Positions 1-42,042 of a DNA stretch of 42,042 nucleotides are shown here, piece by piece. The notes under the pieces were generated by a model. The model saw nothing but the letters and a program-made list of their open reading frames with translations, had not been told where the DNA came from and ran no database searches. Position numbers and translations under genes: made by a program. This DNA is from Escherichia phage Skarpretter, in the sequence record NC_048112.1, one strand, 5' to 3'. How positions within the stretch are numbered: the first letter of the stretch is position 1; each line of letters starts with the position of its first letter.

Positions 1-16
1 TAGCAAAAAGTGCTAT
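1..16 (-). promoter_or_regulatory. upstream half of the conserved promoter element (palindrome ATAGCAC-N4-TGCTA), truncated by window edge
   Basis: rc reads atagcactttttgcta, identical to the copy at 36884..36899; TATAGT half would lie beyond window start. Confidence 0.4.
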
Positions 17-4035: not shown

Positions 4036-4066
4036 GCCGCCCCGTTTTGGACGCGGCTTTTTTTTA
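4036..4066 (+). terminator. possible rho-independent terminator (plus orientation)
   Basis: GCCGC-12 nt loop-GCGGC followed by T8; long loop, overlaps 3' end of the minus-strand primase gene. Confidence 0.35.
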
Positions 4067-4894
4067 CCCAAACGCCCCCACCAGATCCGCGCCAGCCATT
4101 ACCCGCCCGCAATCCCGGTATAAATAAACCTCGTCCGGGTCAAGCGCCACCATGCGGATCTCACGATCGCCAGTGTACCGCGCCGCAACCTCCCGGCAAT
4201 TCAGCGGAGTAAAGCCGATCCAGATCTCGCACCCCAGCGCCGGGCCTTTGTGCTCTGCCACTCGCACCGCCATTACCGGATCGCTGATAAGGTAGATTGG
4301 CCCATCTTCCAGCCCTTCGGCTGGGTGGATCATCGCAACCGCGCCCCAGGTGCGGAAACCTGCCGCAAACTTTACGGAGAAGTCAGGATCAACCCGCGCC
4401 AGATTGCAGAAGAAAGGCGACGCGCCAGCCTCGCCAACTTTCCGGCATGGTAGATAGGCTGATCCGGGCCTCCTCCCAGCGGTAGCCAGGTTTATTACGC
4501 GCTCGTGTGGGATCTCGGCACTGGCGGCACCCTGCTTTGATTTGGCAAGCGCTTTGGAGGCTTTGGCGATCTGATCCATCTTCGCCGGGGTCAGCCCGCC
4601 GATCCAATCCCCCAAATCATTTACCGCTTCGTTAAACTTCTGAGCGCGGGCACGCATAAACCAAAACATGCCGTCATGCGAGCCGCCGCAATCGCCGGAG
4701 CAATAGGCGAAACCCTCCTCACGCTGGCGCGGTTTCTTGTGCCCCCATCGGAAACGGTCAACGCCACCACATACCGGGCAAGCCTGGTGGTTGCCGTCAA
4801 ACGTCTTACGATCCCAGCCGCAAAGCTCCAATAAGGCTTGCTCCCAGCGGTTACGCATGGCGTTTAAAACTGTTTTCTTGTCGTGTATTGCCAT
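4064..4894 (-). CDS. DNA primase (zinc-ribbon plus TOPRIM-like)
   Basis: CPVCGG...CSGDCGG zinc-ribbon like primase Zn-binding domains; C-terminal acidic DPD motif (MVALDPDE) consistent with TOPRIM; likely ATG at 4894. Confidence 0.55.
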   Translation of the reverse strand: MAIHDKKTVLNAMRNRWEQALLELCGWDRKTFDGNHQACPVCGGVDRFRWGHKKPRQREEGFAYCSGDCGGSHDGMFWFMRARAQKFNEAVNDLGDWIGGLTPAKMDQIAKASKALAKSKQGAASAEIPHERVINLATAGRRPGSAYLPCRKVGEAGASPFFCNLARVDPDFSVKFAAGFRTWGAVAMIHPAEGLEDGPIYLISDPVMAVRVAEHKGPALGCEIWIGFTPLNCREVAARYTGDREIRMVALDPDEVYLYRDCGRVMAGADLVGAFG

Positions 4895-4916
4895 AATCAA
4901 CAAAGCCCGTTACTAT
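4888..4916 (+). promoter_or_regulatory. putative sigma70-type promoter for helicase operon
   Basis: TTGCCA-17 nt-TACTAT followed by a CTCAAAC element, ~40 nt upstream of helicase ATG. Confidence 0.35.
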
Positions 4917-10132: not shown

Positions 10133-10342
10133 ATGCAAATTATCATTTTGATCGCCAACGTGCGAAAAGACAAAGGCAAGAGCCAAAGCGACGTGGCAAC
10201 CGCAACTGGAATTGCGGAGCGCCAGTTAAGCCGATATGAAAACCAACACGAGATCCCGAAACTGCCAACACTGGCAAAAATCGCGGATTACCTGGGATGT
10301 ACGATCGAGGATCTTTACGAGGTCAAACAAGCCGGGGAATAA
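10133..10342 (+). CDS. XRE/Cro-like helix-turn-helix transcriptional regulator
   Basis: 69 aa; SQSDVATATGIAERQLSRYENQ HTH signature; followed by strong terminator. Confidence 0.7.
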   Translation: MQIIILIANVRKDKGKSQSDVATATGIAERQLSRYENQHEIPKLPTLAKIADYLGCTIEDLYEVKQAGE

Positions 10343-10346
10343 ATAA

Positions 10347-10372
10347 GGGGCCATAGCGGCCCCTTTTTTTTT
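10347..10372 (+). terminator. rho-independent terminator, likely bidirectional
   Basis: GGGGCC-atagc-GGCCCC followed by T9; lies between convergent HTH gene and tailspike gene. Confidence 0.8.
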
Positions 10373-12678: not shown

Positions 12679-12699
12679 TAAAAAAGGGGCCGTAGCCCC
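12679..12699 (-). terminator. rho-independent terminator after ejection-protein gene
   Basis: Minus strand GGGGC-tacg-GCCCC followed by TTTTTT. Confidence 0.7.
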
Positions 12700-12704
12700 T
12701 TCGT

Positions 12705-20718: not shown

Positions 20719-20741
20719 TAAAAAAAGGGGCCGTAGCCCCT
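20719..20741 (-). terminator. rho-independent terminator after coat gene
   Basis: Minus strand GGGGC-tacg-GCCCC followed by T7. Confidence 0.75.
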
Positions 20742-20776
20742 TTATACACGAAACAATCAGGTTAATCACCTATGCC

Positions 20777-26478: not shown

Positions 26479-26522
26479 ATAGCACGAATTGCTAAAGCAT
26501 TTCACGTTAAAGTGATTATAGT
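26479..26522 (+). promoter_or_regulatory. conserved promoter element driving the 3-gene cassette
   Basis: ATAGCACgaatTGCTAAA, 22 nt, TATAGT, aatCTCACAttcac, ~35 nt before ATG at 26557. Confidence 0.6.
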
Positions 26523-26556
26523 AATCTCACATTCACGAACAAATGAGGGCTTTAAA

Positions 26557-27124: not shown

Positions 27125-27152
27125 AACAGGGGCCATTGCGGCCCCTTTTGCG
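27125..27152 (+). terminator. rho-independent terminator (bidirectional position)
   Basis: GGGGCC-attgc-GGCCCC followed by TTTTG; between convergent cassette and terL 3' end. Confidence 0.7.
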
Positions 27153-32238: not shown

Positions 32239-32314
32239 AGGCAAAAAGTGCTATATGTTCATCAGCAACGCGATCCACAAAAACCAAAGAAGCATTAACG
32301 TTGATCCGTCCATC

Positions 32315-33093: not shown

Positions 33094-33401
33094 ACTTTAT
33101 TCACTCCTCAATGAATGTACAACATCGCACAAAAGTTGTTTTGTCTTTTCGTGCTGTCGGCCTTTACCGCTTCCGGCAATCGCTAACATCGCCAACGCAC
33201 AATAAGCCCGCAAGGGCGTTTGGGTGCGGTGGTGTGCGTAGCGAGTGGCGAGCGTAGCGAGTTAACACGATAGTGTTTTATATATATAAGGGCGCACTCT
33301 TGTTGTTGTGCATATTAAACCCTTGATTTATATAGCCTTTTCACCACTCCCGCACAATAATAAGTTTTGTGCGGGTTATGTTATTGAAATACAAAGAAAA
33401 A

Positions 33402-34973
33402 TCAGCGTTCAGCCAGCGGCGGCGGCGATGCGTCGTTAGCCGTCAAAATCTCCTCGCCGTCATTGTTGATAAACGAGCGGATCAGCTGCTTTTTGATCGC
33501 GTTCTCGATCGAGCGCTTGATCTGGTATGGCGTTTTCGCGGTGCGCTCCGCCATTTGGTTTGTGGTGTCCATGCGTTCATGCTGCCCGCCGCGTGCCATG
33601 AGGAAATCGATCACGTCCTGCTCGCTGTTGCTCGGCCTGGTGAGTCTCGGATCTGGCTTGTTCTTCGACTCGCCGCGCTGCGCTTTCTTCTGCTCCTCCT
33701 GCTGCGCTACCAGTTCAGCGGCTAACGTCGCCTCGTCCACCAGTTCGCACGCGTTCAGGTAGCCACCACAAAACAGCGGGTCAATCGGGTTAAGTCCTTT
33801 CAGCGGCTGCGCTGGGCGGATCGAATCCTCAAACTCTGCGAGATATTCCGCCCGGTGCGCTTCTGCTTCGTCGTCCGGGAAGATCTGCATTGTCCGTTTA
33901 GTCAGGCGCAAGAGTTGGGCGATCCCCCCACCACGGCGCTTGCCTGCTGCCATGATGATTTTATCCGGCTGGGTTTTGTCCTGCGTGAGCGAAAACGTTT
34001 TCCAAACCGCACCCTTTGCCGCGCCACCTCCGCGTGACTCCAGCACGAGATAAGGCGATCGCTCGGCCTCCTTGCTTACGTGGGGAATGAAGATCCCGCA
34101 CGCTCCCAGCGCCAGGGCAAAGCGATAACCGCAAAACGTAATGTACTGCTGATCGTCGTTGCTGTTTTCGTCCAGGGGTTTACCGTTGCGCTCGGCGCTG
34201 GATAGGTGAAAACTCTTTGAGTCATAAACAACCATGCACACCTGGCGATCCCCGGCAAAGTCTTTGATCTGGCGGATCTGGCGTAATGCGTTCTCACCCC
34301 ATACCGGGCGATCGAGTTGTACGACGCGCTCAACCTCGCGCCCGTCCGGGCCGATCTCTTTCACGGTCTTAACTTTGGTTGTGTCGGTCAGCGCTGCGGG
34401 GTGCTCGCAGATCAGGACGTGATCCAGGATGTTTTCGCCCCACTCCAGTTGCCAGGCGGAAAGGCAGTTAGTGACGGTTTCGGCGTCCTCGGTAAAAAAC
34501 ACGCTGATCCCTTTCTTCACCATGAAAGCATCCAGGAAAGGTCTACCCGTTGCCACGCACGCCGCCAGCATGGACAAGAGCGTAGTTTTGCCCACGCCTG
34601 GCCCGGCGTTGATCTCGTTGATCGTGTTCATGTTAAACAGGTATTGCACAAACGGCTTTGGGATCTTCGGTTTCGGGTTCTCAATGAATACGGAGGCGGG
34701 CTTACGCTCCGGCTTTGGCTGCTGCGGGCCTGCGTCCTCGTTGTCCGGCTCGTCCACCTGCTCGGAGTGATCGGCAAGGCGTGCTAACTCCGCGTCGCTA
34801 TAGTCGGGAGCCTGCGCCGCTAACCACTCCTCCGGCATGTCCGGCACGGTGTCGCCCAACTCTCCCCAGGTCTGCATGTCCTCGTAATCCGGCTCGAATT
34901 GCTCCGGCTCCGGGGTTGGCTCCTGCTGCTGTAAAGAGCCGTTGCCACGGTGTTTTGTGGGGTCGAATTTCAT
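33402..34973 (-). CDS. P-loop NTPase (RecA/DnaB-like Walker A), possible replicative ATPase/helicase
   Basis: 523 aa; acidic disordered N-terminus, Walker A NAGPGVGKTTL, Walker B-like VCMVVYDS; first gene of leftward operon. Confidence 0.65.
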   Translation of the reverse strand: MKFDPTKHRGNGSLQQQEPTPEPEQFEPDYEDMQTWGELGDTVPDMPEEWLAAQAPDYSDAELARLADHSEQVDEPDNEDAGPQQPKPERKPASVFIENPKPKIPKPFVQYLFNMNTINEINAGPGVGKTTLLSMLAACVATGRPFLDAFMVKKGISVFFTEDAETVTNCLSAWQLEWGENILDHVLICEHPAALTDTTKVKTVKEIGPDGREVERVVQLDRPVWGENALRQIRQIKDFAGDRQVCMVVYDSKSFHLSSAERNGKPLDENSNDDQQYITFCGYRFALALGACGIFIPHVSKEAERSPYLVLESRGGGAAKGAVWKTFSLTQDKTQPDKIIMAAGKRRGGGIAQLLRLTKRTMQIFPDDEAEAHRAEYLAEFEDSIRPAQPLKGLNPIDPLFCGGYLNACELVDEATLAAELVAQQEEQKKAQRGESKNKPDPRLTRPSNSEQDVIDFLMARGGQHERMDTTNQMAERTAKTPYQIKRSIENAIKKQLIRSFINNDGEEILTANDASPPPLAER

Positions 34974-35007
34974 CGTTTTTACTCCTGCGGGTTATCATTG
35001 CCAAATG

Positions 35008-35036
35008 AATATACGCTAACGGGATGTATTACACAA
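35008..35036 (-). promoter_or_regulatory. putative sigma70-type leftward promoter (TTGTGT-17-TATATT) for ATPase operon
   Basis: Minus strand TTGTGT, 17 nt spacer, TATATT, ~30 nt upstream of ATG at 34973; -35 overlaps a 9-bp inverted repeat. Confidence 0.45.
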
Positions 35037-35061
35037 CAAAACTTTAAAACTATTGTTGTGT
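35031..35061. repeat. perfect 9-bp inverted repeat ACACAACAA-N13-TTGTTGTGT (candidate operator)
   Basis: In divergent control region between ATPase operon and plus-strand early island; overlaps -35 of leftward promoter. Confidence 0.6.
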
Positions 35062-35074
35062 AAGTTTTGTGTGA

Positions 35075-35118
35075 ATAGCACGAATTGCTAAAACAGCTTT
35101 ATGAATACTATGTATAGT
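35075..35118 (+). promoter_or_regulatory. conserved promoter element driving plus-strand island
   Basis: ATAGCACgaatTGCTAAA, 22 nt, TATAGT, tatCTCACAccaac, 32 nt before ATG at 35151. Confidence 0.6.
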
Positions 35119-35150
35119 TATCTCACACCAACGAATTGAGGCAAAACAAA

Positions 35151-35696
35151 ATGACTACAGCAATCACAATGAAAGTAACCCTCGGCGCACTGGCTGGCCT
35201 GATCTCCTACTGCGAAAACAAAAAAATGAAAATGGCAAAGATTCAGGCGCACGTTTCTAACATCGCCTTTATCGAACTGAATCACCCGGCCTTTGCTTAC
35301 GCTAAAGACCTGCTCAACGAGGCCGCTGATAAGCGCCGCACCTTCTCCGGCGTTGCTAACTGCATCCAGGCGGCGATTACTGAGATCAACCGCGTGATCG
35401 ACGCTGCGCACGCTGAGGCCCTGGAAATGGACGCGGTAGTAAATGATTGCGTAACCCGTTTCAAATACTGCATCGATCACTATCAGGCTGAATGCAACGT
35501 TAAAAACGAGATCCACGGCCTCGTGATTGCGAAAGGCTACGCGCTCGGCTGGACGGCTCGCATGATGGTTAAAATGGTGGCTAACGTGTGGCGTTTGGGT
35601 GAGGCGGCGGCAAAGGCACACCGCGCACATACTGCGGCAATGCTGGCGGCGGCTCCGGCTAATGGCTCAATCCCTGATTATGATCTCCCGTTTTAA
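35151..35696 (+). CDS. hypothetical protein with SSB-like C-terminal tip (..SIPDYDLPF)
   Basis: ~181 aa from ATG at 35151 (GAGG SD); C-terminus IPDYDLPF. Confidence 0.6.
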   Translation: MTTAITMKVTLGALAGLISYCENKKMKMAKIQAHVSNIAFIELNHPAFAYAKDLLNEAADKRRTFSGVANCIQAAITEINRVIDAAHAEALEMDAVVNDCVTRFKYCIDHYQAECNVKNEIHGLVIAKGYALGWTARMMVKMVANVWRLGEAAAKAHRAHTAAMLAAAPANGSIPDYDLPF

Positions 35697-35710: not shown

Positions 35711-35754
35711 ATAGCACGAATTGCTAAACGCCGCGTCTAAATACTATGTATAGT
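35711..35754 (+). promoter_or_regulatory. conserved promoter element
   Basis: ATAGCACgaatTGCTAAA, 22 nt, TATAGT, tatCTCACAccaac, before ATG 35788. Confidence 0.6.
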
Positions 35755-35787
35755 TATCTCACACCAACAAACAACGGAGTAAACGAA

Positions 35788-36431: not shown

Positions 36432-36887
36432 ATGAAACCACAAGAGATCAAAAAGGCGGGCATCTTCTCAAAGGATGATATTCACTGCTTCACTGACTGC
36501 GGCTACAACTGCAAGGCAAAGGTAAGGGCTGATCTTGAGGCGCATTACGCGCCAATCGCTGCGGCGCTGGGTAACGGCTGGCGCGTTAACATCTGGCACA
36601 ACGGCGGCTGGCACGCTAACCTGGCGCATGATGAATCACAATTTTACCTGAGCGATCGAGCGGTGCGCGGCGGTATCAGTGCAATGAAGGTGGACGCCGA
36701 TCGGTTTGAGGACAACGTAAACCGCTTTGAGGTGTTCAATTACGAATACCCGGAGGGCACCAGCCAGGTTTGGGTGTACGGTAACGATCCGAAAGACGCG
36801 ATCCGCAACGCCTTTAACGCCGTGTCGGAGCGGGTAGTAGCCTACATGGTGCAACAACAAAAGATCCTGGACGCTTTCCCCGGATAG
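36432..36887 (+). CDS. hypothetical protein
   Basis: 151 aa, Trp/Asn/Gly-rich; stop codon lies inside next promoter palindrome. Confidence 0.55.
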   Translation: MKPQEIKKAGIFSKDDIHCFTDCGYNCKAKVRADLEAHYAPIAAALGNGWRVNIWHNGGWHANLAHDESQFYLSDRAVRGGISAMKVDADRFEDNVNRFEVFNYEYPEGTSQVWVYGNDPKDAIRNAFNAVSERVVAYMVQQQKILDAFPG

Positions 36888-36927
36888 CACTTTTTGCTAA
36901 ACGCTCCTCGTAAATACTTGGTATAGT
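36884..36927 (+). promoter_or_regulatory. conserved promoter element
   Basis: ATAGCACttttTGCTAAA, 22 nt, TATAGT, tctTTCACAccaac, before ATG 36959. Confidence 0.6.
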
Positions 36928-36958
36928 TCTTTCACACCAACACGAGGAGCGAAACAAA

Positions 36959-39282: not shown

Positions 39283-39833
39283 TGTGGGGCGCGATCCTGG
39301 CCCTCCTGCGCCGATACTGGAAGCCGATCGCCGTAATCCTCCTCGTGCTGCTGGCGCTGGGGGGATCTTACCTTAAAGGCTCGGCTGATAAGGATCAGGA
39401 ATGGCAAGCGCGATGGACACAACGCGATCTGGACGATTCCACCCAGAAAGGGATCGATAATGTAGCCGCCCGGATAATTGAACAAGGCCGGGCCATTGAA
39501 CGCCAGGAGGCGATCGAGGATGCACAAAAACGGGAAGCCGCCGCGCTGGCTGCTGCTGATCGGTTGCGTGGTACTGTTGACGGCCTGCAACAACTCGCCA
39601 ACAAATACGCGGCCCAACTGGACGCCCAGCGGGCAACCACTGATCTTGCCGCTGCCGTCGCAAGCAAAACAAAAGCCCAGGGGGCCGGAGTGCTCGCCGT
39701 CATGCTCGGAAGCGTTGCAAAGGAAGCTGAATATTATGCTAAACGATCTGACGAAAGCTACGACGCCGGGCTAACCTGCGAGCGGCTTTACGAGTCGGTG
39801 AGGGTGACGCAAGAAAAAGTCAAGGGGCCATAA
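39282..39833 (+). CDS. Rz: i-spanin (Rz-like)
   Basis: 183 aa; N-terminal TM helix, periplasmic coiled-coil; TAATG coupling with R. Confidence 0.7.
   Translation: MWGAILALLRRYWKPIAVILLVLLALGGSYLKGSADKDQEWQARWTQRDLDDSTQKGIDNVAARIIEQGRAIERQEAIEDAQKREAAALAAADRLRGTVDGLQQLANKYAAQLDAQRATTDLAAAVASKTKAQGAGVLAVMLGSVAKEAEYYAKRSDESYDAGLTCERLYESVRVTQEKVKGP
39520..39774 (+). CDS. Rz1: o-spanin (Rz1-like) lipoprotein embedded in +1 frame of Rz
   Basis: ~84 aa from internal ATG; signal peptide with lipobox (LIGC / LTAC), Pro-rich mature region. Confidence 0.55.
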   Translation: MHKNGKPPRWLLLIGCVVLLTACNNSPTNTRPNWTPSGQPLILPLPSQAKQKPRGPECSPSCSEALQRKLNIMLNDLTKATTPG

Positions 39834-39848
39834 CGGCCCCTTTTTTTA
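39822..39848 (+). terminator. rho-independent terminator (bidirectional position)
   Basis: GGGGCC-ataac-GGCCCC followed by T7; between Rz and convergent Ig-like gene. Confidence 0.8.
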
Positions 39849-40674: not shown

Positions 40675-41007
40675 TTACTGCGTTATCTTGCCAGCCTTAA
40701 CCCATTTAACGCGCCTGTTAGCCACTGAGGCAAGCGGACGCTCTAAACGTGCGGCAATCTCTTTGGTTGTTACGCCCTCGTTTGCCAACTCGATCAACGC
40801 CTGATCCTCCGTGCTTTTCCAGTATTCGAAAGATCGGGCCGCTTTCATGTCGAGGCCCAAATAGCGCCCCCGATTCTGGATCGAGTTGAGCGGACGGCCC
40901 AACTTGTGCGCAAGCTGTTTGGCGGTTAAGCGCTCCTCTTTCGGCAATGCCGCGTTACTGATCAGCGCCTGATCCTCTGCTGCGGTGTACTGTTTCCCGT
41001 TTGGCAT
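40675..41007 (-). CDS. DNA-binding protein with two tandem Myb/SANT-like HTH repeats
   Basis: 110 aa; repeats AEDQALIS...TAKQLAHKLGRPLNSIQNR and TEDQALIEL...TTKEIAARLERPLASVANRR resemble the Myb repeat W-x-EDQ-x-IEL...IA..L...R. Confidence 0.5.
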   Translation of the reverse strand: MPNGKQYTAAEDQALISNAALPKEERLTAKQLAHKLGRPLNSIQNRGRYLGLDMKAARSFEYWKSTEDQALIELANEGVTTKEIAARLERPLASVANRRVKWVKAGKITQ

Positions 41008-41795: not shown

Positions 41796-42000
41796 ATGCA
41801 CCCCGCAAAGCGTCGCGGGCGTTTTCTTCGGCCTGGGCCGCTTCACGTTTCAGGGCGGCAACTGCTGCCGGGCCTGCATGGTACATTTTCAGGCGGTTAC
41901 GGAGACGGCAAGCCAGATCCGCCAGCACATGAGCCTGAGCCAGTAACAGCGGGGAAACGATCTGCGCTTTGTTGCTTTTGGTGATTAGTAAAGTTTGCAT
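41785..42000 (-). CDS. hypothetical protein
   Basis: ~71 aa from ATG at 42000 with GAGGAG SD, directly downstream of promoter element at window edge. Confidence 0.45.
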   Translation of the reverse strand: MQTLLITKSNKAQIVSPLLLAQAHVLADLACRLRNRLKMYHAGPAAVAALKREAAQAEENARDALRGAYGK

Positions 42001-42013
42001 CGTTGTTGCTCCT

Positions 42014-42042
42014 CTTGTTGGTGTGAGGTCACTATACAAAGT
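42014..42042 (-). promoter_or_regulatory. downstream half of conserved promoter element (TATAGT-N3-CTCACACCAAC), truncated by window edge
   Basis: Minus strand reads tatagtgacCTCACAccaac then GAGGAG SD and ATG at 42000. Confidence 0.5.

Follow-up and report, generated by a model that had tools for sequence, protein, structure and literature searches.

Escherichia phage Skarpretter (MK105855) is a lytic phage isolated on E. coli MG1655, with a genome of 42,042 bp and a G+C content of 55.8% (PMC7552041). The whole stretch of DNA analyzed here, referred to as the window, has this length and composition (42,042 bp, 55.8% G+C). At positions 34974-35150 of the window, a 177-nt spacer separates the start of a leftward ATPase gene (33402..34973, minus strand) from the first rightward gene (35151-35696, plus strand). 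The spacer contains an inverted repeat (35029-35063), which overlaps a predicted promoter of the ATPase gene. Next to it locates a rightward promoter-like element (35075..35118, plus strand). The segment 35021-35120 is the most A+T-rich 100 nt of the genome. The ATPase has 523 residues and is a putative replicative helicase of the RepA/DnaB type and a putative initiator.

The inverted repeat upstream of the ATPase gene

A perfect 9-bp inverted repeat with a 13-nt spacer had been predicted at 35031..35061, and its two arms, ACACAACAA (35031-35039) and TTGTTGTGT (35053-35061), are read directly in the sequence. The perfect match in fact reaches 11 bp. Its promoter-proximal arm is TTACACAACAA on the plus strand (35029..35039), its distal arm is TTGTTGTGTAA (35053..35063), and the A+T-rich 13-nt spacer AACTTTAAAACTA (35040..35052) lies between them. 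No other perfect inverted repeat of the 42-kb window with a spacer of up to 20 nt is as long. A third site, TTCACACAAAACTT on the minus strand (35062..35075), adjoins the palindrome of the rightward element; its TTGTGT core on the plus strand (35067-35072) is located 11 bp beyond the second such core.

On the minus strand, TTGTGT (35036..35031) is followed by a 17-nt spacer, TATATT (35013..35008, 34 nt upstream of the ATG), AGGAG and the ATG at 34973. The reverse complement of the promoter-proximal arm holds this TTGTGT. The arm covers the -35 hexamer of a predicted leftward promoter with the geometry that had been described. Compared with the sigma70 consensus, this promoter is weak, matching 8 of 12 positions overall and just 3 of 6 in the -35 hexamer. 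A strict sigma70 scan of 34700-35400 reported no promoter at the repeat, and the promoter is therefore called from its conserved position.

For the comparison, a megablast search of 33-38 kb of the window against phage records returned short matches only, and the relatives were therefore reached through the ATPase protein. Our set contains 13 loci, that is, the window and twelve further loci with an ATPase homologue, which represent perhaps 8-9 independent lineages. The further loci derive from Escherichia phage C130_2 (Hungariovirus) and Stutzerimonas phage STP9, the closest annotated relatives of the window, from the metagenome mosaic L006, and from ten contigs reached through protein homologues. 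Complete genomes were compared for the window, C130_2 and STP9.

In the 13 loci, the best sigma70-like promoter (8-10 of 12 positions) has a -10 hexamer that ends 32-36 nt ahead of the ATG. The promoters of the relatives score higher than that of the window, with 9-10 of 12, at this conserved position. In most loci, the TTG-led -35 hexamer is carried by the repeat, the type of which varies between lineages; in L018, the repeats locate between and after the hexamers. The spacing from the repeat to the -10 hexamer is held at 16-18 nt across the loci.

The repeat type of the window, referred to as CACAA, is shared by L011, L012 and L017. The arm cores CACAACAA and TTGTTGTG are invariant in these four phages, even in L017, though its ATPase is just 62% identical. 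The outermost arm base of L017 changes from A to G in one arm and from T to C in the other, which keeps the dyad. The spacer varies at 5 of its 13 positions and its length is always 13 nt. Meanwhile, the 15 nt between the proximal arm and the -10 hexamer are scrambled, and GTATATTCATT, which contains the -10 hexamer, is invariant. The third site is missing from L017 owing to an 11-nt deletion. The intergenic region as a whole is 89% identical among the four phages. We also notice that GGCAATGATAACCCGCAGGAG (34986-35000), in the 5' leader of the ATPase mRNA, is almost invariant in these phages despite very divergent ATPase N-termini. It holds TGATAAC, the core word of another repeat type, TATCA.

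We then considered how often such a repeat occurs by chance. A first-order Markov simulation of the whole window gave 0.33 repeats of this kind per genome, with at least one in 23.5% of the simulated genomes, and a simulation with the local composition of the A+T-rich 177-nt spacer gave one in 67 of 20,000 runs (0.3%). By chance alone, the repeat is only moderately unusual and not compelling. We regard it as real because it is conserved among the relatives, not because it is improbable.

A scan of 34700-35400 reported no intrinsic terminator at the repeat, which has an A+T-rich stem and a 13-nt loop and is not followed by a run of T. An Rfam search of the whole window returned no match at the gathering score. 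Folded as single-stranded DNA, the repeat reaches only -8.9 kcal/mol. On the basis of this weak fold and of its position upstream of both predicted transcription starts, we rejected a hairpin or RNA reading.

Repeat types, the ATPase and its downstream region

Besides the CACAA type, four other types of repeat were observed. The TATCA type, composed of TTATCA heptads and their inverse, is present in STP9, L006, L016 and L014. The ATCAA type (AATCAA / TTGATT) is present in C130_2, L019, L013 and L015. The CTCAA type (TTGAGGAG / CTCCTCAA) is found in L018 and the ATCAT type (ATGATT) in L020. CRP, IHF and DnaA-box readings of the repeat were rejected by eye, as a fixed host specificity cannot yield five lineage-specific words.

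In each phage, the word of the promoter recurs in a 250-310-nt non-coding region that starts right after the stop codon of its own ATPase gene. When the 7-mers of the control region were compared with every 150-nt segment of the genome, a scan that assumed no location beforehand, the top-scoring segment in the window, C130_2 and STP9 was located in this downstream region. A 13 x 13 matrix of control regions against downstream regions gave an average of 22.0 shared 6-mer positions for pairs of the same type, versus 9.5 for pairs of different types. The words of the other types are not enriched in these regions of the window or STP9, which controls in part for composition.

Downstream of the ATPase gene of the window, 27 nt past the stop codon, a second inverted repeat with the same core, CCCGCACAA-N9-TTGTGCGGG, is located at 33349..33375. 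It is the second-longest short-range inverted repeat of the window, and type-specific counterparts occur at the same place in all relatives. The 11-mer CACAAAACTTA of the third site at the promoter recurs within one of its arms. The region follows a common layout, in which the type-specific inverted repeat is succeeded by more sites, a TATATATA tract (33276-33289), an oppositely oriented site, a CTCGC block and a small G+C hairpin. In the window, the putative origin core (33262..33311, minus strand) consists of GCACAACAACAA (33300-33311), the A+T tract TTATATATATAAAA (33276-33289) and the degenerate inverted site TCGTGTTAA (33262-33270). The block of CTCGC repeats, CTCGCTACGCTCGCCACTCGCTACGC (33236..33261, minus strand), is conserved in all related loci whatever the repeat type, and may be a type-independent component of the origin, for example for priming or helicase loading. 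The small G+C hairpin after it (33206-33218) is likewise conserved regardless of repeat type.

Overall, 33262-33375 presents short iterons in opposite orientations around an A+T-rich centre, and equivalent layouts are seen in all 13 loci. Judged from these oppositely oriented words flanking the TATATATA tract and from the CTCGC block, the downstream region is a probable replication origin. Klebsiella (T1-like) homologues of the ATPase core lack a downstream non-coding region, which means that the arrangement cannot simply be extended to these phages. Past the putative origin, ahead of small membrane-protein genes, we observed a degenerate promoter element, ACAGCACGAAAAGACAAAAC ... TACATT (33102-33157, minus strand), which is kept in several relatives. 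A further imperfect copy of the promoter element, ATAGCACTTTTTGCCTAA, locates near 32245-32262.

The sole Pfam match of the ATPase is AAA_25 (1.9e-9), and its PHROG matches are helicase-primase families. The best fold match of its core is the hexameric helicase RepA of RSF1010 (1g8y). This match is weak because the confidence of the full-length AlphaFold model is low outside the C-terminus: the mean predicted local distance difference test (pLDDT) score is 60 for the full-length model, and the C-terminal part reaches 80-87. The C-terminal domain (residues 447-523; 33405..33635, minus strand), modeled alone, has a mean pLDDT of 84.7, and its residues 449-512 adopt a helix-strand-helix-helix-strand-strand order in the AlphaFold model. 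In a Foldseek search against the PDB, this domain matched MepR and other MarR proteins, MecI/BlaI, Fur-family proteins, ORC and STIV F93, with template-modeling (TM) scores of 0.6-0.7. Sequence searches of the PDB gave no significant match; everything returned was a winged-helix protein (eS25, cullin WH-B, MarR, the MCM C-terminal domain), which is a hint only. The C-terminus is thus confidently predicted from the model to be a winged helix matching DNA-binding winged helices. Its third helix, PYQIKRSIENAIK (residues 482-494; 33492-33530, minus strand), is the predicted recognition helix and is type-specific. The first 100 residues of the ATPase (34674-34973, minus strand) are strongly acidic, predicted to be disordered (pLDDT below 50) and 14-86% identical among the relatives, independent of repeat type. 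This N-terminal region of about 100 residues may be a tail for interaction with host proteins.

Superimposing repeat type on identity matrices of ATPase residues 1-100, 101-440 and 447-523 revealed that the C-terminus alone follows the type. The recognition helix is YQI[KG]R in all four loci of the CACAA type and [AS]HRSNILRSIR[TN]LIEKQY in all four of the ATCAA type; it reads KPRSNVLRSIKRLIEKHQ in all three loci for the TATCA type, and YNVQR in the CTCAA locus L018. The ATPases of L017 (CACAA) and L018 (CTCAA) share 97% identity in the core and 66% in the C-terminus, and both the helix and the repeat differ. L015 combines a TATCA-like core (86-87%) with an ATCAA-like C-terminus, and its repeats are of the ATCAA type both at the promoter and in the downstream region. 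Changes of a single base in the word (CACAA to CTCAA, TATCA to ATCAA) are paired with three to six substitutions in one recognition helix.

The other candidate proteins behave differently. Most of the genome is 91-96% identical between C130_2 and STP9; their ATPase genes are 78% identical, with no detectable similarity at the 5' end, and their control regions have diverged. The window encodes one Cro-like helix-turn-helix (HTH) protein (10133-10342) and a D5-like regulator (40675-41007). The Cro-like protein is identical in C130_2, which has ATCAA repeats, and STP9, which has TATCA repeats, and the D5-like regulators are near-identical. These two proteins therefore cannot account for the different repeats. 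The first rightward gene does not track the repeat type either: L006 has repeats and an ATPase of the STP9 type beside a rightward gene of the C130_2 type, and L015 has ATCAA repeats beside a rightward gene that is 98% identical to that of the window.

Both loci are independent natural recombinants, and their junctions fall exactly between the promoter palindrome and the type-specific repeats (about 2780-2800 in L006; about 2400-2410 in L015, right after GTGCTAT). These junctions indicate that the rightward early cassette and the replication cassette, composed of repeats, promoter, ATPase gene and origin, are swapped as separate modules. Since the repeat type follows the winged-helix domain of the ATPase and the word recurs at the putative origin, we assign the repeat to the replication cassette.

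Roles of the repeat and its genomic setting

The rightward element consists of ATAGCACGAATTGCTAA (35075-35091), 21 nt and TATAGT (35113-35118). As had been noted, its palindrome, TAGCACGAATTGCTA, begins at 35076, 14 nt from the 9-bp repeat. It belongs to a bipartite element with the consensus ATAGCAC-N3-TTG[CT]TAA, 21-22 nt, TATA[GCA]T, which precedes most operons and is present in seven copies in the window, seven in C130_2 and six in STP9. Judging by its sequence and position, this element is a general promoter type of this phage group. The distances between the palindrome and the leftward -10 hexamer are 50, 55, 58, 58, 61 and 68 nt and show no helical phasing. Neither these distances, nor the recombinant junctions, nor the fixed spacing from the repeat to the -10 hexamer gives support for a functional link between the repeat and the rightward promoter. 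The rightward element is a neighbor of the repeat system and not part of it. In this particular phage, a protein on the third site (35062-75) could possibly hinder the rightward promoter sterically.

We propose, with a probability of about 0.6, that the repeat is a pair of inverted iteron-like sites for the C-terminal winged helix of the ATPase, which would act as an initiator-helicase and regulate its own gene. The ATPase, a helicase of the RepA/DnaB type, would double as the replication initiator of the phage, and its winged helix would read a word of 5-6 nt, RCACAA in this phage. As it accumulates, the ATPase would occupy its own promoter through the arm on the -35 hexamer and, in the manner of plasmid Rep proteins, most probably repress it. 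The ATPase would likewise recognize RCACAA in the non-coding region directly downstream of its gene, the probable origin. The repeat might also be an auxiliary melting site. Binding of the ATPase to the repeat, the direction of regulation (repression or activation) and the origin function are what we infer from the patterns above.

Several points weigh against this proposal. With 3 of 6 matches, the -35 hexamer of the window is poor and would also fit activation, and no promoter was reported there by the strict scan. Promoter, gene and downstream region are physically linked, so their covariation perhaps reflects in part the inheritance of a cassette, and this linkage is broken by a few recombinants only (L015, L017/L018, L006). 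The control and downstream regions are both among the most A+T-rich of the genome, which inflates the sharing of words, and the TATCA and ATCAA types cross-match appreciably in the 6-mer matrix. In addition, ACACAA is the word at the promoter sites of the window and GCACAA that at its downstream sites; the motif was widened to RCACAA after both had been viewed.

A different role for the same binding protein is that the repeat itself is a (second) replication origin, in which inverted initiator sites flank a 13-bp A+T stretch that is melted for self-loading of the helicase. The overlap with the promoter would then be incidental, or serve the transcriptional activation of the origin, and such a role is compatible with autoregulation. 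The layout of the repeat is indeed a small-scale version of the downstream core, where inverted sites enclose an A+T tract, and of the origin of the Staphylococcus aureus pathogenicity islands (SaPI; PMC9371898), and the repeat lies in the A+T-richest part of the genome, with the minimum of the cumulative GC skew nearby at about 36.4 kb. We rejected the skew as an origin locator, however, since it follows gene orientation and is uninformative. The downstream region is far more origin-like, with about 300 nt of non-coding sequence, more sites, a longer TATATATA tract and the CTCGC block in all 13 loci, whereas the repeat keeps a fixed position relative to the -10 hexamer in every lineage, which argues for a promoter-linked role. 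We consider it unlikely that the repeat is an origin.

The original prediction took the spacer for a compact switch, with an operator on the leftward promoter, next to the rightward one, through which one or two DNA-binding proteins could coordinate the two operons. A conserved DNA-level element on the leftward promoter is retained from this proposal; a two-operon switch operated by separate HTH proteins is not. The divergent intergenic position, the third core adjoining the rightward palindrome and the presence of the Cro-like and D5-like genes would suit an operator at which a separate HTH repressor or activator of the phage acts. However, these two proteins are identical or near-identical in C130_2 and STP9 despite their different repeats, the adjacent genes include no repressor, the first rightward gene does not follow the repeat type, recombination parts the palindrome from the repeats, and the distance of the palindrome to the leftward -10 hexamer is unphased at 50-68 nt. 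An operator of this kind is very improbable. Hardly more probable is that the repeat has no dedicated protein and represents an UP-element-like or curved stretch, a site for host nucleoid proteins, or a chance repeat kept by recent ancestry. An 11-bp inverted repeat does arise in 23.5% of the simulated genomes, and the 89% identity of the intergenic region in the four CACAA-type phages makes its conservation partly a matter of recent ancestry. Yet the local-composition simulation for the 177-nt region yields the repeat in only 0.3% of the runs, and the variation among the four phages sits in the spacer and the flanks, sparing the arm cores. Moreover, five words occupy one position, each recurring downstream of its own ATPase gene, which a host factor of fixed specificity cannot explain.

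The genes of the window agree with its description as a lytic podovirus. It contains a P22-like morphogenesis set (portal, scaffold, major capsid, head-closure and adaptor proteins, tail needle, ejection proteins and tailspike), genes for lysis, and genes for replication and recombination, which encode primase (4064-4903, a gene separate from that of the ATPase), helicase, exonuclease, Erf, SSB, dUTPase and methylases. The absence of an integrase or CI-type repressor among the annotated ORFs of the window fits a lytic phage, and a search of bacterial genome contigs returned no relatives and hence no evidence for a prophage form.

The seven copies of the bipartite element in the window are located at 26479-26537(+), 35075-35133(+), 35711-35769(+), 36884-36942(+), 24191-24130(-), 3982-3920(-) and 16-1 plus 42042-42000(-). 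In its fuller form, the element reads ATAGCAC-N3-TTGCTAA, 21-22 nt, TATAGT-N4-TCACA, about 35-45 nt upstream of a ribosome-binding site and ATG, and it is always asymmetric (GCAC..TTGC). A sigma54 reading of the palindrome was rejected, because GCAC-N3-TTGC is 2 nt short of the sigma54 spacing and has AG, not GG. Although the element resembles a sigma54 -24/-12 element, it more probably represents an activator site with its centre near -42 of a sigma70 -10 hexamer. The seventh copy is split by the ends of the window (1-16, 42000-42042). Joining the ends leaves a gap of 5 nt between palindrome and TATAGT, not 21-22 nt; either the junction lacks about 16 nt or the window stops at true ends of the genome.

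Ahead of the rightward helicase-exonuclease-Erf-SSB operon, a sigma70-like promoter, TTGCCA-17-TACTAT (4888-4916, plus strand), lacks the palindrome. The final gene of this operon is the Cro-like HTH gene, the only one of its kind in the window. It is possible that the two replication operons are the true early genes and that the Cro-like HTH protein activates the palindrome promoters. We also observed near-identical G+C hairpins, GGGGCC-N4-GGCCCC with flanking A runs and T runs, between convergent or tandem operons (10345-10370, 39822-39847, 12680-12701, 20721-20742 and 27127-27152). They look like canonical, partly bidirectional intrinsic terminators.

Comparison with known systems

In the papers searched, the regulatory regions of this phage group are not treated. 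Our analysis assigns a function to a gene annotated as hypothetical in C130_2, the homologue of which in the window we read as a putative initiator-helicase, and it gives poorly studied lytic coliphages (Skarprettervirus and Hungariovirus relatives) candidate locations for the replication origin and for the early replication promoter. Five repeat types with matched helix variants, including the near-isogenic L017 and L018 (97% in the motor), offer material for the study of specificity change in a winged helix. The same series allows asking whether replication specificity limits recombination or cross-complementation between co-infecting phages. More tentatively, we speculate that lytic P22-like podoviruses carry a self-loading RecA-fold helicase-initiator, with at least five iteron types forming replication-specificity groups among co-infecting relatives, and with promoter repeat and origin sites handcuffed by the hexamer; this wider picture is doubtful. 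The two sets of sites lie about 1.7 kb apart around the gene, and a hexamer might bridge them in a handcuff-like loop that couples initiator synthesis to origin firing.

Iteron-plasmid initiators include RepA of pPS10 and pSC101, pi of R6K and RepE of F. Plasmid Rep dimers repress their own genes through inverted repeats inside the rep promoter (PMC5397158). The arrangement described here is alike in that an inverted repeat of the word of the putative initiator lies within the initiator promoter (PMC5397158) and the word also occurs at the putative origin. The recognition module is a winged helix in the plasmids and, by prediction, here, and plasmid initiators also bind related repeats at the origin. 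In contrast to the Rep_3-type proteins with their WH1-WH2 domains, such as RepA, the protein here is a 523-residue RecA-fold AAA_25 helicase with one C-terminal winged helix. The replicon is also different, being a lytic podovirus; the monomer/dimer switch and repression are features of the plasmids.

The Rep helicases of SaPI bind iterons of 5-6 nt through a C-terminal winged helix, and the iterons directly follow rep, with an A+T-rich centre between copies of opposite orientation (PMC9371898). In SaPI and other phage-inducible chromosomal islands (PICI), as predicted here, the winged helix is at the C-terminus of a helicase, iterons and origin are just downstream of its gene, and related elements differ in their specific Rep-origin pairs (PMC9371898). 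That study does not describe a pair of iterons on the promoter of rep (PMC9371898). The motors differ as well: that of SaPI is an AAA+ protein of the MCM-like clade with a pre-sensor II insert, whereas the ATPase here has an AAA_25 RecA fold with a weak match to RSF1010 RepA.

The alpha protein of the satellite phage P4 is a superfamily-3 helicase fused to a primase, and its C-terminal DNA-binding domain reads short repeats at ori and crr. It resembles the present case as a replicative helicase with a C-terminal DNA-binding domain, here predicted, and with short repeats at two separated loci. Unlike in P4, the primase is encoded by a separate gene (4064-4903) and the second cluster of repeats is on the promoter of the ATPase gene itself. 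The lambdoid OR/OL operators with Cro and CI are alike in placing dyad-symmetric sites over a promoter in a divergent intergenic region; here, however, neither an adjacent repressor gene nor a series of equivalent 17-bp operators is present, and the Cro-like protein does not covary with the repeats. A self-encoded initiator with iteron-like sites at its promoter and at the origin most likely represents a known logic, not a new kind of switch. This logic is that of iteron plasmids and SaPI Rep-origin modules, so nothing is overturned, and what sets the system apart from both paradigms is the motor family, a RecA-fold AAA_25 ATPase.

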